DNA of 64,000 nucleotides from Candidatus Omnitrophota bacterium (GTDB taxonomy: Bacteria; Omnitrophota; Gorgyraeia; Gygaellales; Profunditerraquicolaceae). The DNA is taken from NCBI GenBank assembly GCA_022710715.1, contig JAKLGJ010000002.1, positions 501,453 to 565,452 of the forward strand, read 5' to 3'. The notes beneath the pieces are model-generated. The model ran no database searches, was not told the DNA's origin, and was given only the letters and a program-made list of their open reading frames with translations. A program made the position numbers and the translations under genes. Numbering within the stretch: position 1 is the first letter of the stretch; each line of letters opens with the position of its first letter. This document shows positions 38,298 to 61,452 of the stretch, in pieces.

Positions 38298-38312
38298 GAA
38301 GGATTGGTATTC

Positions 38313-40164: not shown

Positions 40165-40167
40165 ACC

Positions 40168-40518: not shown

Positions 40519-40520
40519 TC

Positions 40521-42260: not shown

Positions 42261-42263
42261 CCT

Positions 42264-44163: not shown

Positions 44164-45117
44164 ATGCGTATTCTGGTTACCGGCGCCACCGGTTTCATCG
44201 GCAGCCGCCTGGTCGATGCGTTGCTGGCTCAAGGCCATGCGGTTACCGCTCTGGTGCGCGAGACCAGCGACACGACGTTTCTTCGAGCCGGAAACGTCAA
44301 CCTGCTCACGGGAGACCTTCGCGATGCGCGCAGCATAGAAGCGTTGCCGGCGCAGCCCTGGGACGCGGTGTTCCATTGCGCGGCGATGGTCGCGGACAGC
44401 GATCCCCGGGCCCTTTTTAAATCCAATGTGATCGGCACCGGGAATATCTGCGAGCTCGCTCAACGCTCGCACGCCGGCAGGTTCATTTATCTAAGTTCCG
44501 TTGCCGTGATCAGCGGGAATCCCCGGTCGCCTCTTACCGATGATCTTCCTTACCGCGCTACCAATCTCTATGGCCATTCCAAGATCGAAGCGGAAAAAAT
44601 AGTTCTCTCTTTCAGGCAACAGGGATTGCCGGTAGCAATCCTGCGCCCGAGCATGGTGTATGGAGAAGGCGAGCCGCATATGCAGCAGGTTTTGCTGCGG
44701 CTGCTGCAATGGCGGCTGCTTGCGCTTCCGGCGCGCGGCCGTCCGAAAATGCATCTGGCGTATGTGGGCACGGTCGTGCGCGCGCTGCTTTTGGCATTGC
44801 AGAGCGACGTTTTGCTCGAAGGGACTTTCCTGGTGGCGGATGAAGACGTCTTGAGCATGCGGGAGATATTCACCGCTTTCAGCGCAGGGCTGGATGCGCC
44901 TGCGCCGTGGCTCCTGCCCTGCGGCATGACGCCGCTGTTGCGCCGGCTTCCCTGGCTGGGCAGGCGGCTGGATGCTCTGCTCAAGGATCGGGTCTACGAT
45001 ATCAGCCGGCTGAAAGCCGCGGGTTTCCCGGCAGGAGAGTATTCGACCAGAGCGTTACTTGTGCGCACGGCAAGGGAGTGGAAGAGCGGACAGTCGGCAG
45101 GTCAGATTTTCCTGTAG
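44164..45117 (+). CDS. NAD-dependent epimerase/dehydratase (SDR) family protein
   Basis: ILVTGATGFIGSRL Rossmann motif; YxxxK. Confidence 0.8.
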   Translation: MRILVTGATGFIGSRLVDALLAQGHAVTALVRETSDTTFLRAGNVNLLTGDLRDARSIEALPAQPWDAVFHCAAMVADSDPRALFKSNVIGTGNICELAQRSHAGRFIYLSSVAVISGNPRSPLTDDLPYRATNLYGHSKIEAEKIVLSFRQQGLPVAILRPSMVYGEGEPHMQQVLLRLLQWRLLALPARGRPKMHLAYVGTVVRALLLALQSDVLLEGTFLVADEDVLSMREIFTAFSAGLDAPAPWLLPCGMTPLLRRLPWLGRRLDALLKDRVYDISRLKAAGFPAGEYSTRALLVRTAREWKSGQSAGQIFL

Positions 45118-46187
45118 ATGCGGGCGTTGGAATCGGTATCCTCGAAATAATTCTTCATCTCATACACCATATTCTCGGATTTCCCCAGTACGATATATCC
45201 GTTCAGACGCAGCGATTCATGAAATTGCTTGAGGATCTGATGCTGGAGTTCTTTGTTGAAATAGATGAAGACATTCCGGCACAGCAGTATATCGATGTCC
45301 TTGAGGTATTCCTGCGAAGTCAGATCGAGGTAATTGAACGCAACCATGCTCTTTACGGATTCCAGAACGCGGTAATTGTCCCCGCTGACCGCGAAATATT
45401 TCGATACCAGTTCGGGCTCGGTGTTGATCAGCCGGTCCTTGGGGTACTCGGCTTTTTGCGCGGTATTCAGGCAGGCTTTATCCACATCGGTAGCGAAGAG
45501 TTCCACTTTAAAATGCAGGAGGGTGGTTTTAAGCACTTCCCGCAACAGTATCGCCATGCTGTACATTTCTTCTCCGCAGGCGCAGCCGGCCGACCAGATG
45601 CGCAGCGACGTGTCGTTGTTGCGCATTTTTTCCCTGGCCAGCGTTTCGATCAGATATCTGATGGTGATCCAGACCGGCTTGTCGCGAAAGAACTCCGAGA
45701 CATTGATACAGAGGGTTTCGAAAAGTTTCTCGTATTCCTGCGGCTGCCGGGCGAGCAGGTTCATGTATTCGGTATAGGAAGACAGGTTGTTGAGTTTGAT
45801 GCGCAGCGCGAAACGCCGTTTGAGCAGGTCGATGTGATAATTGCGGAAATCCAGCCCGCGGTCCTGCAGGATGCGTTCGAGCAGCCGCCGGAAAGCTTTC
45901 TTCCGGTCTTCGAGAGGCGGATGTCCGGGGTTGGCGTCGATGGTGTCGATGGCTTTGAGCACGACGTGGTTGATCTCCCGCTGGTGTTCCTCTCTCGCTT
46001 GTTGCACCGCGGCGTCAAGTTCTTCCCGGGTTACGCTGACCGTCTTCGGGGCGACCTGGGCAAGCACCTCTTTGAGCATGTCTTTTCTGCATTTGGCGCA
46101 GGTGCAAATGTCGTAACGCATGTTCAGGCTGCGCTCGAGGGTTTCCAGGGCGATGATTTCAATGAGATTGTAGTTTTGAACGCTCAT
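45102..46187 (-). CDS. ComFB-like N-domain fused to CheR-type SAM methyltransferase
   Basis: N-term YDICTCAKCRKDML..PKTV (ComFB 4-Cys pattern); CheR motifs (INVSEFFRD, IWSAGCACGEE, LLCRNVFIYF). Confidence 0.7.
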   Translation of the reverse strand: MSVQNYNLIEIIALETLERSLNMRYDICTCAKCRKDMLKEVLAQVAPKTVSVTREELDAAVQQAREEHQREINHVVLKAIDTIDANPGHPPLEDRKKAFRRLLERILQDRGLDFRNYHIDLLKRRFALRIKLNNLSSYTEYMNLLARQPQEYEKLFETLCINVSEFFRDKPVWITIRYLIETLAREKMRNNDTSLRIWSAGCACGEEMYSMAILLREVLKTTLLHFKVELFATDVDKACLNTAQKAEYPKDRLINTEPELVSKYFAVSGDNYRVLESVKSMVAFNYLDLTSQEYLKDIDILLCRNVFIYFNKELQHQILKQFHESLRLNGYIVLGKSENMVYEMKNYFEDTDSNARIYRKI

Positions 46188-46212
46188 GACCCTATTATAT
46201 CACCGGCAGGGA

Positions 46213-47307
46213 TTAAGGGGAGGGGATTTTTTTGTAGAGGCGCGAATCGAAGTCGATCTCCTGAAAAATGCTTTTGACGTCACGGATCATGCTTTCCGAT
46301 TTTCCCATCACCAGATAGCCTTCCGGCTTGAGGGATTGATAGAATTTCATGAGGATCTGTTCCTGGAGGTTGCGGTCGAAGTAGATAAAGACATTGCGGC
46401 AGAAAACAATATCGGCGTTTTCGATCAGTTCGGTCGAGGTTAAATCGAGATAGGCGACGGTTATCAGGTTGTGTATCTCCGCGCTGACCGTCCAGCTTCC
46501 GTCTTTGCCGGCGAAGTATTTCTCCAGCAATTTTTTGTCCACGTTCTTGAGGCTCTCTTTGCCGTAAACGCCTTTCCCCGCGGCATCCATAACCTTCTTG
46601 TCCACGTCAGTGGCATGGATCTGTATCTGGAAATCGGACATGCCCGGTCCGAGCAGCTCGCGCAGGATGATGGCGATGGTGTGCGCTTCTTCGCCGCTGG
46701 CGCAGCCGGCGGACCAGATCTTCAGGCTATGGGAGTTTTCTTTTTTTTTAGCCCGGATCATTTCCTCCAGAACCCGCTTGACCGCTACCCAGACTTCCGG
46801 ATCCCGGAAGAATTCAGAAACGTTGATGCAGAGAACTTCGAAGAGTTTGTCGTATTCTTCGGGATGGTTGATCAGATACCGCAGATAGTCGGCGTAGGTG
46901 GCGAGCTTGAGGGTGCGTATGCGCACGGCTACTCTGCGCCGCAGCAAATCCTGATGATAGTGCCGGAAATCAAGACTGCGGTCCTCGCGTATTTTGTCCA
47001 GCAGCAACGCAAAAGTTTTGTTTTTGTCTTCTTTGATCTGATGCCGCGGATTGTTGCCGACCAGCTCGATCGCTTGAAGAATGGCTCTGGCTATCTGGGC
47101 CTGATGTTCCACCCGGGTTTGCTGAATAATTGTGTGCATCGCGCCTTCCTGCGTGGTCACGTATTTTGCCGGCACATGGGAGAGGATATAGGCGAGCATG
47201 TCATTTTTACAGACTGCACAGGTGCAAATATCATAGCGCAGAGTAAGCGCGCTTTGCAGGTAATCCTGGGCAATGTCTTCAATGATATTTCTAAGTTTTT
47301 CAGACAT
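46213..47307 (-). CDS. ComFB-like N-domain fused to CheR-type methyltransferase, tandem paralog
   Basis: YDICTCAVCKNDML..PAKYV; INVSEFFRD, IWSAGCASGEE, VFCRNVFIYF. Confidence 0.7.
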   Translation of the reverse strand: MSEKLRNIIEDIAQDYLQSALTLRYDICTCAVCKNDMLAYILSHVPAKYVTTQEGAMHTIIQQTRVEHQAQIARAILQAIELVGNNPRHQIKEDKNKTFALLLDKIREDRSLDFRHYHQDLLRRRVAVRIRTLKLATYADYLRYLINHPEEYDKLFEVLCINVSEFFRDPEVWVAVKRVLEEMIRAKKKENSHSLKIWSAGCASGEEAHTIAIILRELLGPGMSDFQIQIHATDVDKKVMDAAGKGVYGKESLKNVDKKLLEKYFAGKDGSWTVSAEIHNLITVAYLDLTSTELIENADIVFCRNVFIYFDRNLQEQILMKFYQSLKPEGYLVMGKSESMIRDVKSIFQEIDFDSRLYKKIPSP

Positions 47308-47464
47308 ATTAGTTTATGATGGATTTCCTTCGTCCGGGAACAAAAAACCCACCCGCTATGTTTATTTTTCACAACAATCATTTAAATATACCATTTACCG
47401 GAGTGCTTGTCAAGGTCTTCCTAAATATTGCGCAAATCAATAATTTAAAATAATAATATTTTTC

Positions 47465-47492
47465 TTGCATAATCTATCAAATATGATAAAAT
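47465..47492 (+). promoter_or_regulatory. promoter-like TTGCAT-16-TAAAAT in AT-rich divergent intergenic region
   Basis: 220-nt region of about 30% GC between divergent cheR-like and pilin genes. Confidence 0.3.
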
Positions 47493-47529
47493 ATGACAAA
47501 TATTATTAAGGTATATCAGGAGCTTCCAG

Positions 47530-48183
47530 GTGAGAGTTTATAGAGTCAATGAAGTCGCCGAGAAACTGGGTATTTCCAAGCAGACCCTGCTGCGTTACGA
47601 GAAGAAGGGCGTGTTTCCTAAATCGCAGCGTAATCGTATTAATAGCTGGCGTGAATATACGGAGGATGATGTTCGTAAACTCCAGTCGATTATCGGTCGG
47701 GCATTTACGCTGATCGAGTTGATCATGGTGATGGTGATCATCGCTGTTCTGGCGGTATTCACCATCCCGACTTTCGACGTTTTTTCCAGCATGAAACTCA
47801 ATGCGGCAGCGCACAGGACCATGTCCGATATCCGCTATGTCCAGGGATTGGCGACGACGACGCACAGCCGTTACCGGATCACGTTCAATGCTGCAGCCAA
47901 TACGTATGAGGTGCGTAACAGTTCGACTAACGCGTTGATCCGGCATCCTTTTACCCGTCAGAACTTCACCGTCAGCCTGAACGCCGATCCGCAATTTACC
48001 GGCGTGGATATCGGTAGCGTCAACTTCGACGGAGGACAGGTGCTGCAGTTTAACTGGAAAGGCGAGCCTGAAACCGGCGCAGGCGCGTTGCTTGCCGCGC
48101 AGGGAAGCGTGAGGCTGGCTTATCAGGAAGAGAATATGAGTGTAACCGTCAGCCCGGGTACGGGATTTGTCAAGGTGCAGTGA
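47530..48183 (+). CDS. MerR-type HTH domain fused in frame to a GspH/FimT-like type IV pseudopilin
   Basis: AGGAG RBS, GTG start; aa 1-55 HTH (AEKLGISKQTLLRYEKKGVFP); aa 56-75 prepilin signature GRAFTLIELIMVMVIIAVLA; C-terminal GspH/FimT-like domain. Confidence 0.7.
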   Translation: MRVYRVNEVAEKLGISKQTLLRYEKKGVFPKSQRNRINSWREYTEDDVRKLQSIIGRAFTLIELIMVMVIIAVLAVFTIPTFDVFSSMKLNAAAHRTMSDIRYVQGLATTTHSRYRITFNAAANTYEVRNSSTNALIRHPFTRQNFTVSLNADPQFTGVDIGSVNFDGGQVLQFNWKGEPETGAGALLAAQGSVRLAYQEENMSVTVSPGTGFVKVQ

Positions 48184-48184
48184 A

Positions 48185-48661
48185 ATGCGCAAGAGCGGGT
48201 TTACCTTAATCGAACTGGTGGTGATTATCGTGGTGGTAGCTATCGCCATCCCGGCATTGTTGAATACCTGGGCGGGCATTTCCTGGCGTTCCATGAATTC
48301 GGAATTTATTGCCGATGCCGATATATACCTGCGGGAGTTGATGGAAGAGATCAAGGTCAAACGTTTCGACGAAGTCACGTCCCGGCCATGGACTGCGTCG
48401 AGCCTTTTCGCCTCCGGGCGCAGCGATGAAACCGAAGAGATCAATAACCGGACAAAGTTTGACGATATCGACGATTACAACGGATACGTCGATTCCACGG
48501 GCGGTTTTAACCGCAGCGTCGGCGTCAGCTATGTCAATCTGACCGGTTCAAACTGGCAGGATGTGGCCGGTCCGACGGATTTTAAGCGCGTCCGGGTATC
48601 TGTTGACCGCGCGCGAAATGCGATCAGCGTTTCCACGGCTACTATTATAAGCGGGTATTAG
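48185..48661 (+). CDS. type IV pseudopilin (GspI/PilV-like)
   Basis: canonical class III leader MRKSG|FTLIEL. Confidence 0.75.
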   Translation: MRKSGFTLIELVVIIVVVAIAIPALLNTWAGISWRSMNSEFIADADIYLRELMEEIKVKRFDEVTSRPWTASSLFASGRSDETEEINNRTKFDDIDDYNGYVDSTGGFNRSVGVSYVNLTGSNWQDVAGPTDFKRVRVSVDRARNAISVSTATIISGY

Positions 48662-48662
48662 C

Positions 48663-49163
48663 ATGCAGAAGCATTCAACGCGCCGCAGAGGCGTTACGTT
48701 AATCGAGCTGGTAGTCGTTATCGTGCTGGTGGGGATTCTGACCGGCCTGGGCAGCCTGTATTTAAAAGAGGTGATCGACCTGTGGAATTTTGTTTCTTTC
48801 CGCAGCGAAGCGGTGAGCACCACGCGGGTTGCGGTGACGCGGATGCTGCGTCAAATGCGCCAGGTGCGTAACGACACGTCCGTTACGTTCGCCAACGCCA
48901 CCCGGTTTCAGTTCACGGACAGGAGCGGCGCCGTGGTGAATTTCAATCTTTCCGGGACAACCTTGTTATGCAATAACAATATCCTGGCCGAAGGGGTCAG
49001 GAATCTTTCCTTTACGTACATGGATAACAGCGGTACATTGTTGCTCAATCCGGCAGTCAGTCCGCTGGCAACGAATATTCGGCTCATTCGTATCGGGCTT
49101 ACGGTGCAGGCCGGCACGCAAAGCAAAACGATCAGCGTGCAGGTTGCTCCGCGAAATCTGTGA
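48663..49163 (+). CDS. type IV pseudopilin (GspJ/PilW-like)
   Basis: MQKHSTRRRG|VTLIEL. Confidence 0.7.
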   Translation: MQKHSTRRRGVTLIELVVVIVLVGILTGLGSLYLKEVIDLWNFVSFRSEAVSTTRVAVTRMLRQMRQVRNDTSVTFANATRFQFTDRSGAVVNFNLSGTTLLCNNNILAEGVRNLSFTYMDNSGTLLLNPAVSPLATNIRLIRIGLTVQAGTQSKTISVQVAPRNL

Positions 49164-49176
49164 GGCAGGAGGTGGC

Positions 49177-50814
49177 GTGCGCATAAACCGGTGGAAAGAA
49201 ACATTGCGCAGTGAGCGCGGCGTTAGCCTGATCGTGGTTATTTTCGTGATCATGCTCCTGGGGGTTATGGGGTGGGCTTTGATGTCCATGCAGAGCGTGG
49301 ATTTCGAGATGAGCTGGCGTAATCTCGATTCCGAGCGGGCGCTGGATGTGGCGGAATCCGGATTGCAGGAAGCGCTTAACCGCATCTCCACCGGTTCCGC
49401 TGAATTCAATAACGATACCAAAGTGCTCAATCGCACCCTGGAGAGCGGCCAGTATGTCGTCACCCGTACTACCGTCAATTCCAACATCAGCGTGCTTTCC
49501 ACCGGTTATGTGCCGGCGCAGGCGAATTACCGTGCGATGCGTCAGCTGGGCATGTTGATTACCAGCGCCAGACTGGATAAAGTCGTTCAGGCGCATAATC
49601 GTTTCAATTGGACCGACATTTCCGGTTCCTCGAGTTTCAACGGCACCATCCAGGCGGCCTGGTATAACGGTGACGACGTGCTTCCGGATAATCAACAATC
49701 CTCGGATATCACCCCCATTCCCCGCACCGGCAGTTCGCCGGCGCCGGTAATCGGGGCTACTCCGTATCCGCGCATCGATATGGCCGGGTATCAGCAGGAA
49801 GCCGCGAGCAGCGGCACGGTCTGGACTCCGCCGCGCACCGGGGTGATCAGCTCTAAAACGGATCTGGGGACAGGGAAAACCCAGCTTGTGTTCACTCCGG
49901 CGGATATGTTTAAAAGCCCGCACGCTCAATTTGAAGGCCAGGCGCTGCGCAATATCTCCCGCGGCCATTGGGATGCTTCATATGCCGCTTTGGCCCCGGT
50001 GACCAGCAATGTCGGGAATCAGAGGGCGGACGTGGATACCATCAGGGTAAACGGTTGGCAGGTCGGCGACAGGGTCATGCTTATTCCGGCGATAGCTCCG
50101 GCGGGAGGCAGCGGTCATCAGACCTTGACCCATAATAATACGCAGAAAACCATCGCTTTTCACCTGGATTGCGAATATGATAATCTGGCGGTAGGGGACG
50201 CGGTGCGTAACCTGGACCGGGCAAATGACAGCTGGTCGTATGATCAATGGGGGACAGTGACTTTCGTCGAAGTCAAGAACAGGCTGACCAACATCACGGT
50301 GAGAGTGGATAGTTCGGTCAATCTTACCCTCGCCGCAAACCAGTGGCAGGTCGGAGATCTGATCTGCGCGGCGAAGTTGTATGATGATACGTGGACCGTC
50401 GATCAGAATATTGTCTACGTGCAGGCGGATACGGTATTCAATGTGGCGAGCTTCATCAATGCTTTTTCCGGCACCAGTATTATCAGCGAGGGTGATATCG
50501 GTATTAAAGGTACGGGGATGATGCTTTTTTCCCAACGGCCGGATCCGTACCCTGCGCTGGCCACCAAGAACGGCAACATTTCTTCCCCGGATCTGCCTAA
50601 CTGGATTTTGCGCTTATTGGGGCTGGGCAGGGTGTTCGATACCCTGATCTATTCGGAAACCGGGGATATTTTCTTTACTTTTCTCTACGGCACTGCGGTA
50701 GTCGGCAACAATGTCACCCTGGTCGATAAATCCGTGGTGAGATACAACGCGGTTATCGCGCAAGCGCCGCATTTTATCATGGATATGATAGCGCAGGACT
50801 GGCAGGATGAATAA
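49177..50814 (+). CDS. GspK/PilX-like large minor pseudopilin
   Basis: GGCAGGAGGTGG RBS, GTG start; ERGVSLIVVIFVIMLLGVMG GspK-like N-terminus; 545 aa. Confidence 0.6.
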   Translation: MRINRWKETLRSERGVSLIVVIFVIMLLGVMGWALMSMQSVDFEMSWRNLDSERALDVAESGLQEALNRISTGSAEFNNDTKVLNRTLESGQYVVTRTTVNSNISVLSTGYVPAQANYRAMRQLGMLITSARLDKVVQAHNRFNWTDISGSSSFNGTIQAAWYNGDDVLPDNQQSSDITPIPRTGSSPAPVIGATPYPRIDMAGYQQEAASSGTVWTPPRTGVISSKTDLGTGKTQLVFTPADMFKSPHAQFEGQALRNISRGHWDASYAALAPVTSNVGNQRADVDTIRVNGWQVGDRVMLIPAIAPAGGSGHQTLTHNNTQKTIAFHLDCEYDNLAVGDAVRNLDRANDSWSYDQWGTVTFVEVKNRLTNITVRVDSSVNLTLAANQWQVGDLICAAKLYDDTWTVDQNIVYVQADTVFNVASFINAFSGTSIISEGDIGIKGTGMMLFSQRPDPYPALATKNGNISSPDLPNWILRLLGLGRVFDTLIYSETGDIFFTFLYGTAVVGNNVTLVDKSVVRYNAVIAQAPHFIMDMIAQDWQDE

Positions 50815-50839
50815 ACGTCGTTTATGCATGGGGGGAGCA

Positions 50840-51109
50840 ATGAATAAAAAACTGATCGTGGGATTTCTTCTCGCTCTGGGTATAGTGGGCATGGCGGGAT
50901 TCCGGCTCTATGCCCAGCGTCTACCCAGCCAGGATGCGGCTGCGGCGATGCAGAGTCTGGGAGGATTGGAGGGCTCTTTTTCTTCGCTCCGGAGCAGCCT
51001 GGATAAGAGCACAAAAGAGCTTTCCCAGAAACTGGACCAGGTGCTTGCGAATCAACAGGCGATTTTGAAAGAACTGGAAGTCGTAAAAGTAAGAGCGTCA
51101 AGGAAATAG
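50840..51109 (+). CDS. small membrane-anchored coiled-coil protein
   Basis: GGGGGAG RBS; 89 aa; start uncertain (alternatives 50807/50828). Confidence 0.35.
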   Translation: MNKKLIVGFLLALGIVGMAGFRLYAQRLPSQDAAAAMQSLGGLEGSFSSLRSSLDKSTKELSQKLDQVLANQQAILKELEVVKVRASRK

Positions 51110-51134
51110 CGTTTACCGGGGGAGACGAATTCCC

Positions 51135-51162
51135 TTGACAGTTAAGCATACATCGGTAGAAT
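51135..51162 (+). promoter_or_regulatory. internal promoter TTGACA-16-TAGAAT upstream of pilM-like gene
   Basis: ttgaca 51135-51140; tagaat 51157-51162. Confidence 0.4.
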
Positions 51163-51169
51163 TGAGACA

Positions 51170-52963
51170 ATGGTCAATCCTGCGGTGACAGAAAAAAACA
51201 AAGTTCCGGCAAAAGCTCCAGCGGCGGCTTCCGGTCCATCGCCGTTTGCCGGCATCGGCTCTATTCTCTACCGCTTTTTCACCGCGGACCAGCATCTCAT
51301 CGGCCTCGATATCGGCTCCAGCTACCTCAAACTGCTCCAGTTGCATCAGGTCAAGGACGGTTATCAGATCAAGCATTATATTGCCCGGGCAATCCCGCCG
51401 AACATCAGGGACAATGCCGCCGAAAAACGCAAATTTATCGGAGAGTTCATCAAAGAGTTCTTGAGCGAAGCCCGGGTAAAACGCTGCCATGGCCGGCTTT
51501 CTTTGTCCGGCAAGGGAGTGTTCGTTTTCTTTCTGAACGTGCCGAATCTCAATAAGAAGGATCTGCGCGGAGCCGTGGGGATCGAATTAAAGAAACGGCT
51601 TCCTTTCCAGCTCGATATCAATAATGTCAGTTTTGATTATTACATCAACGGCCAGGCCAAAGACGAAAAAACCGTCAGCCTTCAGGTGACCTGTATCGCC
51701 GTGGATCGATTTACCATAGACGACCAGGTTCAATTCCTCAAAGATATCGGGATTCAACCGGCGGCGATCAACGCGGTATCCGACGTGCTGGGTAATCTGA
51801 TGGCGTGTTGTTTCAGCGCTCCGGCGGATAAAACGCTGGCATTGCTCGATATCGGGGCAAGTACGGCGTTATTGAATTTTTACAAAGGCAAAAACCTGAT
51901 TTTTTCGCGGGAGATCCCTATCGGGGGCGATCATCTGACGCACGCGCTGGCAAAAGCCATTACCACTTCCGCCGGGCCGGTAACTATCGGCGTGGAGGAT
52001 GCCGAAAAGATAAAGCGCAATTGCGGCATTCCCATGGCCGAAGACGCGCATTCGGAATTCCTGACGGACTTCGGGCCATTGCCCGCAGAACAATTACTGG
52101 CGTTGCTGCGTCCGTTGCTGGAGAGGCTGGTGTTGGAGATCTCGCGCACGCTGACTTATTACGCCAAGACCTATAAAACCCCGGCGATCGAGGAGCTGTA
52201 TATCACCGGCGGGACATCCCGGTTGAAGAATCTGGACAAATTCCTGCAGTTCAATCTGGAAGGCGTCAAGCGGGTAGAACATTTGAATATTCTCAAAATC
52301 GTCAAAGGCTGGGCGGACAAAGGCATCCTGAAGCAGGAATTGATGATGGAACAGGCGGCGCCGCATCTGGCGGTGGCGTTCGGGCTCTGCCTGGGAGCCG
52401 CCGGCAAGGTGAATCTCATTCCGCCGAAAGAACGCCTGGAGCAGAAACTCGCGCTGATCGTTACGCTGCTGCGGGTCGCCTTTCCGCTGATCCTGGTGAT
52501 CAGTATCGGTTTCTATATATCCACCTACGCCAATGCATTGAAAATGAAGGTTGCGGTGAGCAGGGTGGCGGGCGAGATCAACAGCATGGAAGGCACCGCT
52601 TCCCAGGTCCGTCAGTATATGGAATTGAAGGGGAAGCTCGATCAGGGCAAGGGGTTGCTCAACCAGGCTAAAGGCAGGCAGCCGCTATGGCAGGGAGTGC
52701 TCAAGGAATTGAGCGCGCTCACTCCCCAGGAGATCGTGCTGACGAAAGTATTCGTCGAGCAAACCAAGGACGGCAAGGATCTGCATCTGATCGGGCGGGC
52801 TTCCAGCAGGTATACCATCGTGGATCTGGTTATGACCCAGTACATCGACGCTCTGGAGGAATCGCCGTTTTTCAGCGACGTGCGGGAGCTCTCCCGGAAA
52901 AAAGACATGTACGATCCGGTGCCGTCGGCGGATTTCGAACTGGTCTGCAGAATGGATTATTGA
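51170..52963 (+). CDS. pilM: PilM (actin-like ATPase) fused to PilN-like TM/periplasmic domain
   Basis: LIGLDIGSSYLKL PilM N-terminus; about aa 400 TM helix then PilN-like coiled region; 597 aa. Confidence 0.7.
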   Translation: MVNPAVTEKNKVPAKAPAAASGPSPFAGIGSILYRFFTADQHLIGLDIGSSYLKLLQLHQVKDGYQIKHYIARAIPPNIRDNAAEKRKFIGEFIKEFLSEARVKRCHGRLSLSGKGVFVFFLNVPNLNKKDLRGAVGIELKKRLPFQLDINNVSFDYYINGQAKDEKTVSLQVTCIAVDRFTIDDQVQFLKDIGIQPAAINAVSDVLGNLMACCFSAPADKTLALLDIGASTALLNFYKGKNLIFSREIPIGGDHLTHALAKAITTSAGPVTIGVEDAEKIKRNCGIPMAEDAHSEFLTDFGPLPAEQLLALLRPLLERLVLEISRTLTYYAKTYKTPAIEELYITGGTSRLKNLDKFLQFNLEGVKRVEHLNILKIVKGWADKGILKQELMMEQAAPHLAVAFGLCLGAAGKVNLIPPKERLEQKLALIVTLLRVAFPLILVISIGFYISTYANALKMKVAVSRVAGEINSMEGTASQVRQYMELKGKLDQGKGLLNQAKGRQPLWQGVLKELSALTPQEIVLTKVFVEQTKDGKDLHLIGRASSRYTIVDLVMTQYIDALEESPFFSDVRELSRKKDMYDPVPSADFELVCRMDY

Positions 52964-52964
52964 T

Positions 52965-53567
52965 ATGCCCAGGAAATTCAGCAACGTAACCTATATCTTC
53001 GTCTACACCGTATCCGGGATCGCGGTCCTGACGGCGGCGTTCCTGCTCGTCGGCCGGCCGAGCCTGCAGTATCTCAAACGGCAGAAGGCGGATTTCGATG
53101 CCCAGCAGCAGTTGTTGTCCCATTCGGAGCAGCTTATCCGCAGCGTGCCGAATCCGCAGAAGGAGATCGTCGACATACAGCAGAAAATCGAAGAATTCCG
53201 CAAAACGGGAGTGGGCGGCAAGCAACTGCCCCGGATTATTCAACTCTTGAGCCAGTCGGCTGCCGGCAGGGATATCGTGATTATCAGCATCGGCCCCCGG
53301 GAAGATATGCGGGCCTCGCAGGAGAATCTTCCCGCCGGAGTGAATAAAGTCTATATCGAGATGATCTTTACCTGTTCGTTCAAAACGCTGGGGGAATATA
53401 TCAAGGCTTTGACCGAGCTGCCCGGCGTTTTCAGCATCGAAAGCATCGCCGTGGAAAAGGTGCCCTTGCAGCTGTTGTCCCAGAAAGACGCTGCGCGGGT
53501 CGCCGCATCGTCACGCGATCTACAGGTTGATCTGATCATCAGCACGTTCACTATCTATGAGCTGTAA
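52965..53567 (+). CDS. pilO: PilO-like pilus assembly protein
   Basis: single N-terminal TM, coiled coil, gene order after PilM/N. Confidence 0.55.
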   Translation: MPRKFSNVTYIFVYTVSGIAVLTAAFLLVGRPSLQYLKRQKADFDAQQQLLSHSEQLIRSVPNPQKEIVDIQQKIEEFRKTGVGGKQLPRIIQLLSQSAAGRDIVIISIGPREDMRASQENLPAGVNKVYIEMIFTCSFKTLGEYIKALTELPGVFSIESIAVEKVPLQLLSQKDAARVAASSRDLQVDLIISTFTIYEL

Positions 53568-54074
53568 ATGACCAAAAAAGAACAAACCCAGTTAATGATT
53601 ATCGGCGGCGGCGTGTTGATCCTGGCGCTGATTCTGCCGGGAAGCCTCAAGAAGTCGCTGCGCGGCGGCCGTCCGCCCGCTCCCGCCGCGGTTTCAGAAC
53701 CCCTGGCGGTGGATACTGCGCCGGCCGCACCGTTCTTTACCGACGCTGCCCCGGGCAGCGAACAGATCATCGGCGAGCAGCTGAAACGCATTGAAATGCC
53801 CTGGAGCAGGGATCCGTTTACCGTTACCTACGATGCGCGCGACGGATTGCGGGAATTCCAGCTGAAGGGTATTTCATTCGGGACCGATAAAAGCGGTTTC
53901 GCTTACATCAACGAACAGATTGTGAAGAAGGGGGATCTCCTCGGCGACTACGAGGTGGTCGAGATCGAAAAAAACAGAGTATTATTGAAGAGGGGGCAGC
54001 AAAGCTTCTACCTGACCTTTCCCGATGATGGAATAAATAGCGCGTCCGGTAACCCGGCTGCGAAGACGAGGTGA
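53568..54074 (+). CDS. pilP: PilP-like protein
   Basis: TM anchor, Pro/Ala linker, C-terminal beta domain; precedes secretin. Confidence 0.5.
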   Translation: MTKKEQTQLMIIGGGVLILALILPGSLKKSLRGGRPPAPAAVSEPLAVDTAPAAPFFTDAAPGSEQIIGEQLKRIEMPWSRDPFTVTYDARDGLREFQLKGISFGTDKSGFAYINEQIVKKGDLLGDYEVVEIEKNRVLLKRGQQSFYLTFPDDGINSASGNPAAKTR

Positions 54075-54077
54075 CGA

Positions 54078-55481
54078 ATGAAAGTCCGCATGGCGATTCT
54101 ACTGATGATGGCAGGGATGTGGGCGTTGCTTTCTCCGGCGGCGACCGTGTCCGCCCAGGAGCAGCCCAAGAGCGAGATAATCGAATACCTGGAGTTCCGG
54201 GAAGTGGATATCAAGGATGTTCTGCGCCAGTTGTCCAAACAGTATAACCTGAATATCGTTTTCTCGGAGTCGGTCCGGGGACTGGTCACCGTGCAGTTGA
54301 ACAAGGTCAGCGTTGAGCAGGCGCTGGATTCGATCATCACGGTGAACGGATTCGCCTATACCAAAAAAGACAATGTGTTCAAGATCACCACCCAGGAAGA
54401 GGCGGCGCGCGAGGGCAAGCAGACCAAGTTGTTCCGATTGCGCAATGCGGACGCGGCTAAACTCAAAGACACCCTGTCCAAGGTCTTGAGCCCCGACGGG
54501 TCGATCGAAGCGGATGCCCGGTCGAATTCTATCGTGGTCACGGATTCGCTGACGGTGATCAATAAGATCGAGCGGATGATCCCCTCGCTGGATGAGGTGA
54601 CGTCCCAGGTGCTCATCGAAGCGAAATTGATCGAAACCTCGCTGACCAATACCGAAAAACTGGGCATCGATTGGCAGACGACGATACGCGCTTCCGGTTC
54701 AAAACGGCCGACCACGCTGCCGTTCTTGAGCGGGAAAAGCAGTGTGAACGAAAAACTCCTCTCCGAAAACGATACGACGGACTTTCCCACCGCGCATGGA
54801 TTCCCGTATTCGGCCGCCGATGATTTTACCCTGGGCACGCTGGATTTTACCGGATTGAGCGTGGTGCTGGATTTTCTGAAGTCGCGCACCAACACCAAGC
54901 TGGTGGCTTCGCCGCGCATTGTGACGTTGAATAACCAGCAGGCGACGATCAATGTCGGCAAAGTGGTGCCCCTGGCGCTCTATGAACGCAATGAGACCAC
55001 CGGCGCCTGGGAAGTTACCGGGTGGGAGGAGATGAACGTGGGGGTCAATCTGCAGGTCACCCCGCAGATCAGCCCGGACGGTCATATCAAATTGAAACTC
55101 AAGCCCGAGGTGAGCAATATTATCGATTATATCGGCGAAGACGTTAACCGCCGGCCGATCACCTCTACCCGTACCGCGGAGACCGAAGTGATCATCAATG
55201 ACGGAATGACCGTGGTTATCGCCGGGCTGGTTAAGGAAAAGGACTCTTTGACCACGAACAAGATACCGATACTCGGCGATATCCCGTTTATCGGTGCGTT
55301 CTTCACCCGCAAGGAAACCGGCACCGATGAGGAGCCCAAAGAGCGCACGGATCTGTTGATTTTTGTCACCGCCAGAATACTCAAGGATAATCAGGACGTT
55401 GGCGTCGCCGCGGATACCGCAGGGACGAGCGCCTATGCGCGTCCTTTCAAAACGGAGATCAGGGAGAAAAATGCGCAATGA
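54078..55481 (+). CDS. pilQ: secretin (PilQ/GspD family)
   Basis: signal peptide; N0/N1-like domains; C-terminal secretin motif VIINDGMTVVIAGL...IPILGDIPFIGAFF. Confidence 0.9.
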   Translation: MKVRMAILLMMAGMWALLSPAATVSAQEQPKSEIIEYLEFREVDIKDVLRQLSKQYNLNIVFSESVRGLVTVQLNKVSVEQALDSIITVNGFAYTKKDNVFKITTQEEAAREGKQTKLFRLRNADAAKLKDTLSKVLSPDGSIEADARSNSIVVTDSLTVINKIERMIPSLDEVTSQVLIEAKLIETSLTNTEKLGIDWQTTIRASGSKRPTTLPFLSGKSSVNEKLLSENDTTDFPTAHGFPYSAADDFTLGTLDFTGLSVVLDFLKSRTNTKLVASPRIVTLNNQQATINVGKVVPLALYERNETTGAWEVTGWEEMNVGVNLQVTPQISPDGHIKLKLKPEVSNIIDYIGEDVNRRPITSTRTAETEVIINDGMTVVIAGLVKEKDSLTTNKIPILGDIPFIGAFFTRKETGTDEEPKERTDLLIFVTARILKDNQDVGVAADTAGTSAYARPFKTEIREKNAQ

Positions 55482-56622
55482 AAAAATCGGGATAGTGCTG
55501 ATCAGCATCGCTATCGTCGGAATAGTGACGATTTATTACCAGGCTTCGTTGCGCAAGATGCAGCGGGTTACCGTTACGCAGAGCGCTTCTCAAGAGCGCG
55601 CGATCGCGGACTTGCAGAGCGAAATGGCCGCGTTCGCTCAAGCGCAGGCGGAACTGAAAAAGGCGTTATCCACGGCTGAAGGGGCGCTGCAGCAGGAGCG
55701 CACGACAACGTTCGATCTGCAGCAGAAACTGGCCCGGAGCATCGGGGAGAATAAACTGTTGAGTCGTAAGATCGCCGCCGCGGTGAAAGACACCGCCAGG
55801 ATTCCCGGTCTCGAGCAGCAGATCGAAAACGCGGCCCGGGGCGCAGAAACGCTGAAGCAGGAAGTGGATACGGTCCGGCATAATTTCGAACTGGTGCAGT
55901 CCGTACGGGCGCGTATCAGCGAGATCGAGCGCAGCCTCGCCGACCTGCGTTTAAAGCCCGGCAAGGAGGAAGTGATCAAGGTCCGTCTTGAGGGTATGAC
56001 TGCGGAATTAGGCAAGATGAACCAGTATCTGGCCGGTTTGCGCGAAGCCAGATCTCCCGTAACGGCGGCGCCTTCCGTTCAGTCGCCGGCGCCGGTCAAT
56101 CTGGAACGGGAAAAGGTCAGCCTTAACGACGAGCTGAAGTTCCGCGAGGAGATACAGTATTTGAAGAATCAGTCGGAAACGGTCGCTAAAGACAACGCCG
56201 TTCTCAAAGAGAAATACCGCCTGGCCCAGGATCTGCTCAATCAGAACAAAGCCGATCTGTCCGGCAAGGAGGAAAGGATATTCTCTTTACAGTCGCGCCT
56301 GATCGAAATGGAGAGCCATGTCAACGAGCTGCAGCGCCGCTATGAGCAGCTGGAAAAGGATGCGGTTTCCCTTAAAGAAAAATACATCGCCAGCGAGCTG
56401 GAAAAGGAAGACGTGCGCAGCAGGCTCGCCCAGACTACCGCGGAGTTGAACGAAGTGCGCAAGAAATTCGTGGATATGCTGGGAAAGATCTCCAGTGTTT
56501 TTAAAGGGACGGAAGAGGCGCAGCACAACGGCGCTGCCGTTTCCCCGCCGGGTAATGCCACCGGAGGACAGGGCAAGGTGGCGGTCGAATTGATCCCGCA
56601 GCAACCCCGGAGCGCTCCATGA
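55471..56622 (+). CDS. membrane-anchored long coiled-coil protein
   Basis: AGGGAG RBS; N-terminal TM then about 340 aa of heptad-rich sequence. Confidence 0.5.
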   Translation: MRNEKIGIVLISIAIVGIVTIYYQASLRKMQRVTVTQSASQERAIADLQSEMAAFAQAQAELKKALSTAEGALQQERTTTFDLQQKLARSIGENKLLSRKIAAAVKDTARIPGLEQQIENAARGAETLKQEVDTVRHNFELVQSVRARISEIERSLADLRLKPGKEEVIKVRLEGMTAELGKMNQYLAGLREARSPVTAAPSVQSPAPVNLEREKVSLNDELKFREEIQYLKNQSETVAKDNAVLKEKYRLAQDLLNQNKADLSGKEERIFSLQSRLIEMESHVNELQRRYEQLEKDAVSLKEKYIASELEKEDVRSRLAQTTAELNEVRKKFVDMLGKISSVFKGTEEAQHNGAAVSPPGNATGGQGKVAVELIPQQPRSAP

Positions 56623-57215
56623 GCACGATAGTTTCCGGTACGATGATTCTGCTGTGTGTCTTGTACGCGCTGGCTGTGCCGCGCGCATCTTTTGCCGGGC
56701 GGAGCCCGGTCGCCGAGCAGGTCGATGCGTCGTCGGTCCGGCAGGAGAAGATCAAAAAAGCCAGAGAATTCTATGCCCAGGGGCAGAAATTCCTGCGGGA
56801 AGGCAATTATTCTGCAGCCAACGAGGCCTTCGGCAAAGCCGAGCTGGTGCTGGGGCGCGAAGCGCCCGCGCAACTTTATGAAGCGCCGCCGGCGCCGGCC
56901 GATGCCGCTGCGGCGGAGCGGATAATCCCGCTGCCGGTTCAGGACCCGTCTTTTTATTACAATGCGGGAGTGGAGGCTTTGAAGAAAGGCGCATATAAAC
57001 AGGCGGAGGAAGCTTTCAGGAAATCGTTGAGTTTCGATCCGCAGGATAAAGACGCCTGTTATAATCTTGCCGTGCTGTATGAGAATTATCTGGGCAACAA
57101 GCGCGAAGCGCTCAAATATTACCTGCGTTACGTAAACCTGGCGCCTGAAGCTCCGGACGCGGCGCAGGTCAGGTCATGGATCGATCAGCTCAATACCGAG
57201 GTGTCCGCGGAATGA
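56619..57215 (+). CDS. secreted TPR-repeat protein
   Basis: signal peptide; TPR repeats. Confidence 0.6.
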   Translation: MSTIVSGTMILLCVLYALAVPRASFAGRSPVAEQVDASSVRQEKIKKAREFYAQGQKFLREGNYSAANEAFGKAELVLGREAPAQLYEAPPAPADAAAAERIIPLPVQDPSFYYNAGVEALKKGAYKQAEEAFRKSLSFDPQDKDACYNLAVLYENYLGNKREALKYYLRYVNLAPEAPDAAQVRSWIDQLNTEVSAE

Positions 57216-59020
57216 ACGATTACGATCTCGAACAGCTGTTGTTGAACGAAGATCTGATTACGCCGGAGCAGCTGGAGAAGGCTAAAGAGGAGATGCAGCG
57301 GATGAAACGGCCGCTGGAGCAGGTGCTGGTCGACGCCAAGATCATGCCGCGCGCCGTGCTCTACGGAGCGATCGCCAAAAGCCAGGGGTTCAATTACGCG
57401 AATCTCTCCGGTCTCAAAGCCAACGATGAACTGACCAAGCTTATTCCCGAAGAGCTGGCGCATAAAACCCAGTCGGTGCCTTTCAAGATCGAGAATGACA
57501 CGCTGCATATCGCCCTGGTCGATCCGGCGGACCTGTCGGCCATAGACCAGCTGCAGATGCAGGCCGGTATGTCCCTGGAACTGTACCTTTCGTCTCCCAA
57601 GGAGATCGACGAGGCGCGCGGGGCGATCTACGCCAAGCAGCAGAGCGCCGAAAGTCTTTTGTCCGAGTTGAGCGCCGAGCCGCGTTCGGATACCAAGCCG
57701 GTTTCCGAAGGCGCCAACATCATCAAAATCGTGGATCTGATCATTACCCAGGCAGTGCGCGACCGGGCTTCCGATATCCATATCGAGCCGGAGCAGGAAT
57801 TGTTGCGCATCCGCTTCCGGATCGACGGGATACTCCACGAAATTCCTTCTCCGCCGAAAGAATGGGAGTCGCCGATCATTTCCCGCGTCAAAGTGCTTGC
57901 CGGCATGGATATCGCGGAAAGCCGCGTCCCGCAGGACGGTCATTTTCAGTCCAAGATCGAAGATAAAGTGATCGATTTCCGCGTCTCCACGCTGCCGACC
58001 ATTTACGGCGAGAACGTGGTTATGCGTTTGCTGGATACCGCTTCAGTGATGATCGGGCTGGAGAAACTTGGTTTCGCTCACGATGACCTGGTCAGATATG
58101 AAGAGCTTATTTCCCGACCGTACGGTATTATCCTCTCTACCGGCCCTACGGGAAGCGGCAAGACCACCACGCTGTACTCGGCTTTGATGCGCATCAATAC
58201 CATCGATCGCAACATTATTACCATCGAAGACCCGGTGGAATATCGACTGGGCCTGATCCGTCAGATCCAGGTCAATCCCAAAGCCGGCATTACCTTTGCG
58301 GGAGGGTTACGGGCTATCCTGCGCCAGGATCCGGATGTGATCATGGTCGGAGAGATCAGAGACATGGAGACGGGGATTACCGCCATTCAGTCGGCTCTGA
58401 CCGGCCATCTGGTATTTTCCACCCTGCACACCAACGACGCGCCGTCTTCGGTCACCCGTCTGGCGAACATGGGCGTGGAGCCGTTTTTGATCTCCGCGGC
58501 GTTGATCGGGGTTATGGCGCAGCGCCTGGTCAGGACGATCTGTCCGAATTGCCGCGAGCCGTACGAGCCTACCAAAGGAGTGATGAAAAAGTGGGGGTTG
58601 GAAGGCCGTAAGGATGTAGCGCTTTATCGAGGGAAAGGCTGCGATTTCTGCAAGGGCACAGGTTTCCGCGGCCGCACCGGATTATATGAATTGATGATCT
58701 GCGACGATGAGATCCGGGAGATGATTCTGACCAATACCTCGCAGGTGGTCCTGCGACAGAAAGCCCGCGAAAAAGGCATGAAAACCTTGAGTGACGACGG
58801 AGTGGTTAAAGCGCTGCAGGGGATTACGACGCTGGAAGAAGTTGCGCGCGTCTGCGAGGAACATATCGAACTCAAAGCCGTTCCTGCCGCGGAGTTGAAA
58901 CCGGTGGCTCCGGCTGCGCAGCCGCTGCCCCGCGCTGCTGCCCCGAAGGTGCAGGTTAATACGGCGCAGATGGAAGAATATCAGAAACGTATCGGAAACT
59001 GGCTGGGAGGTAAACAATAA
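57212..59020 (+). CDS. pilB: PilB/GspE-type assembly ATPase with N-terminal MshEN/T2SSE_N domain
   Basis: Walker A GPTGSGKTT, Asp box, His box, tetracysteine CPNC..CDFC; ATGA overlap with upstream gene. Confidence 0.9.
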   Translation: MNDYDLEQLLLNEDLITPEQLEKAKEEMQRMKRPLEQVLVDAKIMPRAVLYGAIAKSQGFNYANLSGLKANDELTKLIPEELAHKTQSVPFKIENDTLHIALVDPADLSAIDQLQMQAGMSLELYLSSPKEIDEARGAIYAKQQSAESLLSELSAEPRSDTKPVSEGANIIKIVDLIITQAVRDRASDIHIEPEQELLRIRFRIDGILHEIPSPPKEWESPIISRVKVLAGMDIAESRVPQDGHFQSKIEDKVIDFRVSTLPTIYGENVVMRLLDTASVMIGLEKLGFAHDDLVRYEELISRPYGIILSTGPTGSGKTTTLYSALMRINTIDRNIITIEDPVEYRLGLIRQIQVNPKAGITFAGGLRAILRQDPDVIMVGEIRDMETGITAIQSALTGHLVFSTLHTNDAPSSVTRLANMGVEPFLISAALIGVMAQRLVRTICPNCREPYEPTKGVMKKWGLEGRKDVALYRGKGCDFCKGTGFRGRTGLYELMICDDEIREMILTNTSQVVLRQKAREKGMKTLSDDGVVKALQGITTLEEVARVCEEHIELKAVPAAELKPVAPAAQPLPRAAAPKVQVNTAQMEEYQKRIGNWLGGKQ

Positions 59021-59026
59021 TTCATT

Positions 59027-60295
59027 ATGCCGGTATATGCCTATAAAGCAGTAGACAATAAAGGACAGGCGGTCAAAGGCGAGATGCAGGCGGATAACGA
59101 GATCGCGCTTACTACCGAACTGGCAAAGCTGGGGTATTTGCCGATCGGCATCGAAATGCTGGCCGAGAAAAAAGAAAGCGGTAATTCTTTAACCCGGATA
59201 TTTTCCGGCGGCAATAAGGTTAATTTCCAGGAACTGGTTATTTTTACCCGGCAGTTTTCCACCATCATCAAAGCTGCGGTCCCGATCATCGAAGGCTTGC
59301 GGGTTCTGGCTACGCAGTCGGAAGACCCGGTCCTGAAAGACGCGTTGTTCAAGATCATCCATGATGTCGAATCCGGCATCAGTTTGTCCAAAGCGATGAC
59401 CAAGCATCCCAATGTTTTTTCCGAACTCTATGTCAATACCGTGATCGCCGGAGAAAGCGCGGGGATCCTGGATAAGGTGTTGATCAAGCTTTCCCAGATG
59501 CTGGAAGAGGATCAGGAGACCCGGCAGAATATTATGACCGCTCTGCGTTATCCCATCATGGTGGTTATCGCTTTGATAGCGGCAGTGGTGGTGCTTTCAG
59601 TGGCGGTCATCCCGCAGTTCGCCAAGATCTACTCGGATGCGAAAGTGGCACTGCCGCTTCCCACCCAGGTGATGATCGTGATCAGCAATATCATCCTGGG
59701 CCCGTGGGCCAAGAGCCCCATCCTCGGGCTGAAAATCCTCTGGTTTGTGCTGCTGGCCGGCGGAGCCGGCGGTTTGTATTTTTTATTTCAGTTCGCGATT
59801 AACACCAAACAGGGCAGGTGGTACTGGGACGGTTTGAAGTTCCGTTTACCGGTGGTGAGCAAAGTATATATCAAGATCACCATGCTGCGTTTCGTCTCCA
59901 TGCTCAACGTTTTGTATCAATCCGGGCTGCCGGTGCTGCATACGCTGGATATCGTCAGCTCGACTATCGGCAATGTAGTGCTGGCCAGAGAGATCGATAA
60001 GATAAAGCGCGATGTGGCCGACGGCAAAGGTATATCCGGAGGCATACTCAACAGCCCGCTGTTTCCCCGCCTGGTCGGGTATATGGTTTCGATCGGCGAG
60101 AAATCCGGCGCATTGACCATAATGCTGGATTCGTTGTACGATTTTTATTATCTGGAAGTCAAGACTACGGTGAAGAATCTGACCACCATGATCGAACCGA
60201 TCATGACTTCGGTCCTGGGCGGAGTGGTCATGGGAATGGCGCTGGCGATCTTCCTGCCCATGTGGAAGATGATACAGGTAATCAAGCAGAGTTGA
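59027..60295 (+). CDS. pilC: PilC/GspF-type inner-membrane platform protein
   Basis: 422 aa, duplicated T2SSF domains. Confidence 0.85.
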   Translation: MPVYAYKAVDNKGQAVKGEMQADNEIALTTELAKLGYLPIGIEMLAEKKESGNSLTRIFSGGNKVNFQELVIFTRQFSTIIKAAVPIIEGLRVLATQSEDPVLKDALFKIIHDVESGISLSKAMTKHPNVFSELYVNTVIAGESAGILDKVLIKLSQMLEEDQETRQNIMTALRYPIMVVIALIAAVVVLSVAVIPQFAKIYSDAKVALPLPTQVMIVISNIILGPWAKSPILGLKILWFVLLAGGAGGLYFLFQFAINTKQGRWYWDGLKFRLPVVSKVYIKITMLRFVSMLNVLYQSGLPVLHTLDIVSSTIGNVVLAREIDKIKRDVADGKGISGGILNSPLFPRLVGYMVSIGEKSGALTIMLDSLYDFYYLEVKTTVKNLTTMIEPIMTSVLGGVVMGMALAIFLPMWKMIQVIKQS

Positions 60296-60296
60296 T

Positions 60297-61142: not shown

Positions 61143-61167
61143 CAATTACTATCAGGTATCATAGAAT
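61139..61167 (+). promoter_or_regulatory. sigma70-type promoter TTGACA-17-TAGAAT
   Basis: ttgaca 61139-61144 overlaps upstream stop; tagaat 61162-61167; AT-rich. Confidence 0.5.
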
Positions 61168-61236
61168 ATCATCAAATAGTATTAAGCGTATTTAGGATAA
61201 CTTTTACCAACCCAACTCAAGGCGGTGTGGAAAGAC

Positions 61237-61428
61237 ATGAGCCTCAAAATTTTTACAGCTCAAGAAGTTGCGCAGATGTTGGGGATCTCGAAGCAGACGC
61301 TTTTTCGGTATGAAAAGAAAGGCATTTTCCCTAAGGCTAAGCGCCATCTGATTAACCAGTGGCGCCAATATACCGAAGAAGATATTAAGAAGCTGAAGAG
61401 TATCCTGGGGATAGGTGTTATTCGTTAG
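61237..61428 (+). CDS. stand-alone MerR-type HTH protein, paralog of the HTH fused to the pseudopilin at 47530
   Basis: MSLKIFTAQEVAQMLGISKQTLFRYEKKGIFPKAKRHLINQWRQYTEEDIKKLKSILG, about 65% identical to aa 1-55 of the 47530 protein; ORF may start at GTG 61225. Confidence 0.65.
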   Translation: MSLKIFTAQEVAQMLGISKQTLFRYEKKGIFPKAKRHLINQWRQYTEEDIKKLKSILGIGVIR

Positions 61429-61452
61429 ATCCCTTTCCAACAGAACAGGTGA

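Follow-up and report, generated by a model that had tools for sequence, protein, structure and literature searches.

The closest described case of second-messenger control over a chemoreceptor methyltransferase comes from Pseudomonas aeruginosa, in which MapZ bound to cyclic di-GMP (c-di-GMP) inhibits CheR1 (PMC6370697; PDB 5XLY and 5Y4R). ComFB has been recognised only recently as a widespread family of c-di-GMP and cyclic di-AMP (c-di-AMP) receptors; its downstream targets are in general largely uncharacterised (PMC10068817, PMC12448109, PMC12265714), and the ComFB target for motility inhibition in Bacillus subtilis is still unidentified (PMC12265714). Samir et al. (PNAS 2025; PMC12448109) reported that some Candidatus Omnitrophota proteins couple ComFB to CheR (UniProt A0A1G1PT98). 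The architecture is therefore already catalogued for this phylum, although uncharacterised: that report gives it one sentence and a supplementary figure, without genomic context, paralog clades, che operons, MapZ or experiments on these proteins. Here we describe two members of this group, of the same architecture and from the same phylum, encoded by genes that we call B and A. They lie next to a type IV pilus cluster in a 64,000-nucleotide stretch (the window) of a Candidatus Omnitrophota bacterium genome (GenBank assembly GCA_022710715.1, contig JAKLGJ010000002.1, positions 501,453 to 565,452).

The window proteins resemble the MapZ-CheR1 system in that a c-di-GMP receptor would act directly on CheR and change the methylation of methyl-accepting chemotaxis proteins (MCPs), and the CheR part of B matches CheR1 structurally. 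They differ in that the receptor is ComFB and not PilZ. It is no separate adaptor, being joined to CheR in cis or having its gene directly upstream. Pili, and not flagella, are the presumed output, and such control is here a prediction from sequence. A separate PilZ adaptor that binds CheR was not recognised, although the window does encode two PilZ proteins (starting at 23457 and 23847). The original prediction for this locus, made from the window alone, had compared the pair with PilK of the Pil-Chp system of P. aeruginosa. That comparison holds insofar as PilK is likewise a homolog of CheR with a genetic link to the genes of type IV pili, a resemblance that is functional only. Otherwise it is loose: PilK has no sensor domain; PilJ, PilI, PilG/H and ChpA are all absent from the window; and the che operon of Omnitrophota has CheC, CheD, CheX and a P2-containing CheA with a single Hpt domain. 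Such a gene content is typical of Bacillus/Thermotoga-type systems rather than of Chp. MapZ-CheR1, rather than PilK, is in our view the closest mechanistic precedent, as an analogy and not as a system to which B and A belong.

Two adjacent ComFB-CheR fusion genes

Gene B (46213..47307, - strand) encodes a ComFB-CheR fusion of 364 amino acids, and gene A (45102..46187, - strand) encodes a ComFB-like-CheR fusion of 361 amino acids. B is an exact match to HRZ14929.1 from an Omnitrophota metagenome-assembled genome, and A is identical to HRZ14928.1. The two open reading frames (ORFs) occupy 45102-47307 exactly as first predicted; A begins 25 nt downstream of B, and the genes are probably co-transcribed. 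On its other side, A lies tail to tail with an NAD-dependent epimerase gene. The two proteins are 46% identical over their full length with zero gaps (BLASTP E 2e-126).

In both proteins Pfam places ComFB at about aa 6-87, CheR_N at about aa 98-149 and CheR at about aa 162-354, with scores of 58.8 (PF10719), 40.9 and 180.5 bits in B and 34.3, 37.3 and 177.7 bits in A. All of these domains lie above the curated cut-offs (25 bits for ComFB PF10719) and the matches are far beyond chance; CheR membership was judged by PF03705 and PF01739. The NCBIfam equivalogs for CheR and B. subtilis ComFB (BsComFB) also match, below threshold and in agreement with Pfam. The predicted fusion of a ComFB-type N-terminal domain to a complete CheR was thus confirmed in each paralog. 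In B, the ComFB domain covers aa 1-89 (47041..47307, - strand; delimited by alignment to PDB 4WAI, the clade conservation table and an AlphaFold2 (AF2) model), and CheR_N (aa 98-149) and the CheR methyltransferase domain (aa 162-352) follow (46252..47016, - strand; Pfam, PDB 5FTW/1AF7 and Foldseek). In A, aa 1-89 form a degenerate ComFB-like domain in which the Cys3-His signature is kept (45921..46187, - strand; Pfam and conservation table). The cysteine motif noticed at the outset, YDICTCAKCRKDML, is that of A, and the corresponding stretch in B reads YDICTCAVCKNDML.

The CheR part of B matched the CheR structures of B. subtilis (5FTW, E 4e-33) and Salmonella (1AF7, E 5e-28). The full-length AF2 model of B (predicted local distance difference test, pLDDT, 86.2) was aligned by Foldseek to 5FTW with a target-normalised template modelling score (TMt) of 0.92 and a root-mean-square deviation (rmsd) of 2.1 A, and CheR1-MapZ complexes were matched as well. 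The motifs R124/R125, FFRD, WSAGCxxGEE, ATDxD, CRNVFIY and G..E of B are invariant. In the 1AF7/1BC5 alignment, Salmonella R53, R98, D154, R230/N231 and Y235, which we take to be S-adenosylmethionine (SAM)-binding, catalytic and basic receptor-binding-helix residues, correspond to R125 (with R124), R168, D234, R304/N305 and Y309 of B, and in each of the two paralog clades these catalytic/SAM/receptor-helix positions either do not vary or are conserved to 90% or more. Because the CheR fold is present and the catalytic equivalents are invariant or nearly so, A and B look like active, receptor-type CheRs.

The three-domain architecture was found in at least 120 clusters at 90% identity, and nearly all of the named ones are from Omnitrophota. 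A profile of the ComFB/CheR_N junction, searched against 1.84 billion representative proteins, retrieved only about 17-19 representatives covering both halves, so the fusion family is narrow. In a neighbour-joining (NJ) tree of CheR domains, which is rough and without support values, all fused CheRs formed one clade that is sister to the split CheRs of the che operons, with A nested inside the B radiation. This topology is compatible with a single fusion and a later tandem duplication.

The ComFB domain in the B and A clades

The ComFB domain of B modelled alone (AF2, aa 1-97, pLDDT 82.8) gave just two significant Foldseek targets in the PDB, which were BsComFB (4WAI; TM-score 0.66-0.73, rmsd 2.5 A) and the Synechocystis CdgR-c-di-GMP complex (8HJA; query-normalised TM-score, TMq, 0.69), and a phmmer comparison with 4WAI returned E 8.8e-5. 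In common with these proteins the domain has the fold, cysteines at the first three zinc-ligand positions, and the majority of the residues listed for dimerisation and ligand contact. It departs from them in having an invariant His for Cys88, Ser for Asn40 and His for Tyr55, and in being fused to an enzyme. The zinc site of BsComFB is made of Cys25, Cys27, Cys30 and Cys88. All 184 collected homologs retain R-Y-D-I-C-x-C-x-x-C and P-x-H, represented in B by C28/C30/C33 and the invariant H89; the first three cysteines are thus invariant in the 184 sequences and Cys88 is absent. The invariant His89, two residues past the conserved Pro, sits two residues before the Cys88 position, and the His of P-x-H is the final residue of the stand-alone ComFBs encoded in Omnitrophota che operons. 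This pattern suggests a Cys3-His metal site in Omnitrophota ComFB domains, with His replacing Cys88, a residue that is not conserved even among Bacillota ComFBs (PMC12448109).

Searches with A and with B resolved two clades, and because their members co-occur on contigs, the B/A pair is old and conserved. At the dimer and ligand positions of BsComFB, B has N7, E10, D36, A39, S43, H44, Y49, V50 and H58. The BsComFB residues D33, A36, L37, N40, K41, V47 and Y55 correspond to D, A, Y, S, H, V and H in B, and to D, K, E, A, Q, V and D in A. Throughout the B clade, D36 (83%), A39 (95%), R/H/K44 (86%), Y49 (99%) and V50 (84%) are conserved and N7 and E10 are retained; N40 is replaced by Ser in 94% of the members and Y55 mostly by His. 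The A clade has lost the equivalents of BsComFB A36, L37, N40, K41, Y46 and Y55, often shows a four-residue deletion, and includes 49 orthologs out of 54 with no Pfam ComFB match. The stand-alone ComFBs of the che operons (n=26) are 100% canonical at N4, E7, D33, N40, Y46 and Y/F55. Isothermal titration calorimetry has shown that D33 and N40 matter for ligand binding by BsComFB (PMC12448109). Judged by these residues, B alone retains a ComFB signature that would permit ligand binding; A is degenerate and probably not a sensor.

Pilus genes and the che operon of Omnitrophota

A genome scan with the N-terminal half of the fusion yielded 29 loci (labelled L with a number where needed). B is divergent from the same pilin-PilMN-PilO-secretin-PilB cluster in 13 of them, at identities as low as 49-50%; the opposite flank (A, epimerase, hydrogenase) is retained only in the closest eight. 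Other neighbours, for example PilZ/REC genes or housekeeping genes, are found in 12 of the 29. Outside the 13, the fused gene stands beside PilB, beside PilZ and REC genes or, for the more distant fusions, after PilC-PilM-PilO, and PilZ genes flank ComFB-CheR in L010, L013 and L014. The divergence of the pair from a pilus cluster, which had been predicted from the window (where the cluster starts at 47530 on the + strand), is therefore a link conserved well beyond close relatives.

A che operon linked to pili is likewise conserved in Omnitrophota, in which CheA is common (at least 120 matches in a profile search). In 44 CheA loci the recurring order is CheY-CheC-CheA-CheC-(actin-like protein of 714 aa)-ComFB-CheR-CheY-CheD-CheB-CheX-CheW, and the operon is often preceded by PilB, PilC, PilM and PilO. 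ComFB is present in all 22 CheA loci that extend far enough. A stand-alone ComFB immediately precedes CheR in 23 of 24 che loci of the phylum, and in almost every one of these 23 the distance from the ComFB stop to the CheR start is -4 to +31 nt; the gap is about 135 nt in L066, where the CheR start is uncertain. Fused and stand-alone forms also meet at single loci. L028 reads PilC, PilMN, PilO, fused ComFB-CheR, REC, CheC, CheA, stand-alone ComFB, CheR, CheY, CheD, CheB, CheC and MCP, and at L022 the che operon holds a stand-alone ComFB and is divergent from a B-type fusion, which is the sole adjoining CheR. A relative whose B is 63% identical carries both kinds of locus on one 172-kb contig, about 25 kb apart, with pilus-B-A-epimerase at 58-79 kb and a pil-che-ComFB-CheR operon at 92-114 kb. 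CheA and ComFB-CheR apparently share one contig in at least seven further relatives. The original prediction had counted a canonical chemotaxis operon elsewhere, if it accounted for the pair, as evidence against itself. Such operons do occur in relatives, close to B and A in the case just described, yet they are linked to pili and hold their own ComFB and CheR, which supports rather than weakens a methylation input to pili.

Between CheC and ComFB, 22 CheA loci encode a conserved protein of 714-722 aa, which has an actin fold of the FtsA/MreB/PilM-like kind and whose long C-terminal half is unassigned (L033 12646-14790; L022 4498-6666, - strand). Its candidacy as a hidden MCP was ruled out, since Pfam detects no MCPsignal domain in it. 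A tblastn hint of in-operon fused ComFB-CheR in L063 and L074 was also dismissed, as the ORFs there show a separate ComFB of 86-88 aa and a CheR of about 275-280 aa.

Neither Pfam scans of ORFs nor tblastn searches that used che probes from E. coli and Omnitrophota detected an MCP, CheA, CheW, CheB methylesterase, CheC, CheD or CheX in the window and the 8 kb past its right end (1-72 kb), in agreement with the initial observation that the window has no MCP, CheB, CheA or CheW. No che gene occurs in the extension (L035), where a pilin and second copies of the secretin and of PilB are encoded. Among the at least 120 matches listed for the Omnitrophota CheA profile, none lies on the 914,187-bp ENA contig carrying the window. 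A metagenome scan with the CheA of a relative gave 43 loci, none from window-bearing contigs, and an exact look-up of four candidate CheAs placed all of them on other contigs. Because the window and its 8-kb extension hold no che core or MCP gene, we infer the che operon of this genome from its relatives.

B is separated from the first pilin gene by an AT-rich divergent intergenic region of 222 bp (47308..47529). A consensus scan, the only basis for this call, placed a sigma-70-like promoter upstream of B (47385..47413, - strand; TTGACA, 17-nt spacer, TG-n-TATATT, 11/12 positions), and an inverted-repeat search of the same region returned solely AT-rich low-information palindromes. The pilus cluster is of the type IV pilus/type II secretion-like kind, has four pilin-like genes in all and runs on the + strand. 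Its first gene (47530..48183) encodes a MerR-type helix-turn-helix (HTH; aa 1-54) and a prepilin N-methylation motif (aa 57-77), assigned from Pfam (MerR_1 2.6e-10; N_methyl) and an ortholog alignment. Pfam and gene calls place two pseudopilins, a 556-aa protein, a 100-aa protein, a PilM-PilN fusion, PilO, a PilP-like protein, a secretin and a 383-aa coiled-coil protein at 48167..56622, and the PilB/PilC end of the cluster, running from a TPR protein to a 209-aa protein, at 56619..62082. Within this last block are a PilB-type ATPase with an N-terminal MshEN domain (57176-59020), PilC (59027-60295), a stand-alone MshEN protein (60297-61142) and a free MerR HTH (61225-61428), all on the + strand.

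In the first pilin gene the prepilin cleavage/N-methylation motif (..IIGRA/FTLIELIMV, with cleavage at the slash) directly follows the MerR-type HTH. The leader peptide is thus a DNA-binding domain, which prepilin peptidase would release into the cytoplasm. Besides the window, L004, L006, L007, L011, L016, L018 and L034 carry this HTH leader, and these are the same loci that have the A paralog; in L005, A is present and the HTH leader is degenerate. At six further loci the orthologs begin with an ordinary short leader. Later in the pilus cluster there is a gene for a free paralog of the MerR HTH, of 63-67 aa.

The window is unusually dense in c-di-GMP genes, which comprise two PilZ proteins (23457-23804 and 23847-24233, + strand), a REC-GGDEF protein (24928-26151, + strand) and a REC-EAL protein (13290-14429, - strand), all four assigned by Pfam, together with the MshEN domain of PilB and the stand-alone MshEN protein. 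A second pilus gene set lies past the cluster (window 62079-64000+, L035 10627-20630). It includes a 667-aa DUF8575 protein across the window end, a secretin in two ORFs (293 and 393 aa), a PilW_C-type pilin and a second PilB with MshEN that is 45% identical to the first, and in one relative the equivalent set runs into the che operon. Elsewhere in the window, a protein of 1414 aa (27026-31270, + strand) with a signal-peptide-like N-terminus has an internal enolase TIM-barrel (aa 686-962) and an Enolase_N fragment (aa 1090-1143) that comes after, not before, the TIM-barrel domain, and a protein of 1675 aa (31315-36342, + strand) carries alpha-glucan water dikinase/pyruvate phosphate dikinase-type domains. 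The block at 36822-44018 (+ strand), which encodes HydG, HydF, two NuoE-like proteins, a NuoF-like protein and a group A6 [FeFe] hydrogenase, is conserved downstream of A in the closest relatives and is probably ordinary metabolism unrelated to the ComFB-CheR finding.

A possible cyclic-dinucleotide input to receptor methylation

On balance we lean, by a little, towards B and A being additional CheR enzymes that serve a chemosensory system associated with type IV pili and are gated in cis by c-di-GMP or c-di-AMP. B and A would be protein-glutamate O-methyltransferases with an N-terminal ComFB receptor fold. A cyclic dinucleotide would bind the dimeric ComFB module of B, and the ligand-bound module would alter the access of CheR to a chemoreceptor substrate, or the methylation of that substrate. 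The adaptation set-point of the Che pathway would then track the level of the second messenger, with pilus activity (surface motility or host attachment) as the output. The fusion would represent the cis-fused form of the ComFB and CheR gene pair from the core che operon of Omnitrophota, and A would be a duplicate of B that kept the methyltransferase and lost most of the ligand pocket, serving as a messenger-insensitive isoform or as a partner of B. The most economical reading makes ComFB and CheR functional partners throughout Omnitrophota, whether their genes are neighbours or fused, ties the pathway to type IV pili, and has B, and perhaps A, add cyclic-dinucleotide-dependent control of receptor methylation; on this reading B and A are accessories of a conventional che system and not an orphan methylation device. 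The second-messenger-responsive methylation input to pili put forward in the original prediction is therefore partly supported and largely right in direction: the conserved pilus link and the density of c-di-GMP genes speak for it, and the degenerate pocket of A, with most A-type orthologs lacking a ComFB match, means that it probably does not extend to both paralogs alike.

Several points weigh against this reading. The N40A substitution costs BsComFB about 30-fold in affinity, B has Ser at this position, and the ComFB of T. denticola binds at only 284 uM (PMC12448109). Ligand binding by B may thus be weak or absent, given Ser for Asn40 and His for Tyr55, and the AF2 models carry no ligand or dimer information. 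MCP, CheA, CheW, CheB and CheD are absent across 1-72 kb, this genome's che operon was not found, and an MCP gene lies within 10 kb of only four che loci. The che operon already holds its own ComFB and CheR, which makes a role for the extra fused copies less obvious. Synteny is correlative evidence, and the ComFB phenotype in B. subtilis was judged not to work via chemotaxis (PMC12265714).

In an alternative reading, ComFB is a nucleotide-independent, zinc-stabilised dimerisation or docking domain, which pairs CheRs (B-B or B-A) or tethers them to the stand-alone ComFB of the che operon or another partner, in fusions that sense no messenger. The Cys3-His signature and the fold are invariant in the 184 sequences while the ligand residues drift, ComFB proteins form dimers or tetramers (PMC12448109), and A retains its ComFB domain under selection though the pocket is gone. 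However, the B clade conserves D36, A39, R/H/K44, Y49 and V50, which are c-di-GMP contact positions in 8HJA and BsComFB, and such conservation is not expected of a pure dimer module; the neighbourhoods are also rich in PilZ, GGDEF and MshEN genes. We consider a docking role rather unlikely, if deserving of attention.

The substrate and the output have rival readings too. B and A adjoin pilus genes and not a che operon in the window and 13 related loci, zero MCP or che genes occur within 72 kb, the che operon has its own CheR, and MCP genes are seldom near Omnitrophota che operons, all of which would suit enzymes that methylate a non-MCP pilus protein (the PilM-PilN fusion, MshEN proteins or a pilin) outside the chemosensory array. 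This is improbable in our judgement, since the basic receptor-binding helix of CheR_N (R124/R125/R129) and the catalytic residues are invariant, as in CheRs that methylate MCPs, the B-type fusion of L022 is the only CheR beside a che operon with CheB and CheD, enzymes acting on MCPs, and the fused CheR clade is sister to the in-operon CheRs in the NJ tree. We know of no established non-MCP substrate of a CheR. The pilus adjacency might alternatively be inherited gene order, with B and A serving as additional chemotaxis CheRs for another output; the loci with this arrangement are all from one phylum, and 12 of the 29 loci have other neighbours. We regard this as very unlikely, because the pilus side is retained even at 49-50% protein identity, the opposite side being variable, and independent arrangements again put fused CheRs, and the che operon, directly after PilC-PilM-PilO. 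In addition, a phylum-wide survey of Omnitrophota genomes describes type IVa pili as nearly universal and makes no mention of flagella or of chemotaxis.

The B/A pair is a real and well-supported feature, and a system-level variant of c-di-GMP control of CheR. What is new here, beyond the catalogued architecture, are the two paralog clades, the degenerate A, the putative Cys3-His site, the pilus synteny and the ComFB and CheR pair of the che operon. A broader proposal, which we hold to be doubtful at present and offer as a tentative possibility, is that throughout this phylum of ultra-small, host-dependent bacteria CheR has in ComFB a built-in gate for cyclic dinucleotides, which is encoded immediately upstream or fused and ties c-di-GMP or c-di-AMP to adaptation of the pathway that steers type IV pili at host contact. 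This would make CheR the first enzyme known to be targeted directly by a ComFB receptor, and B and A might form a sensor/pseudo-sensor heterodimer. The CheR fusion and the phylum-wide ComFB-cheR pair nominate a concrete ComFB target. If the favoured reading of B and A as messenger-gated CheRs is true, they would provide a second, independently evolved coupling of c-di-GMP to receptor methylation, alongside MapZ-CheR1. For the Omnitrophota, on whose chemotaxis the main genomic surveys are silent, it would add a sensory layer to the type IV pili that are thought to serve host attachment.

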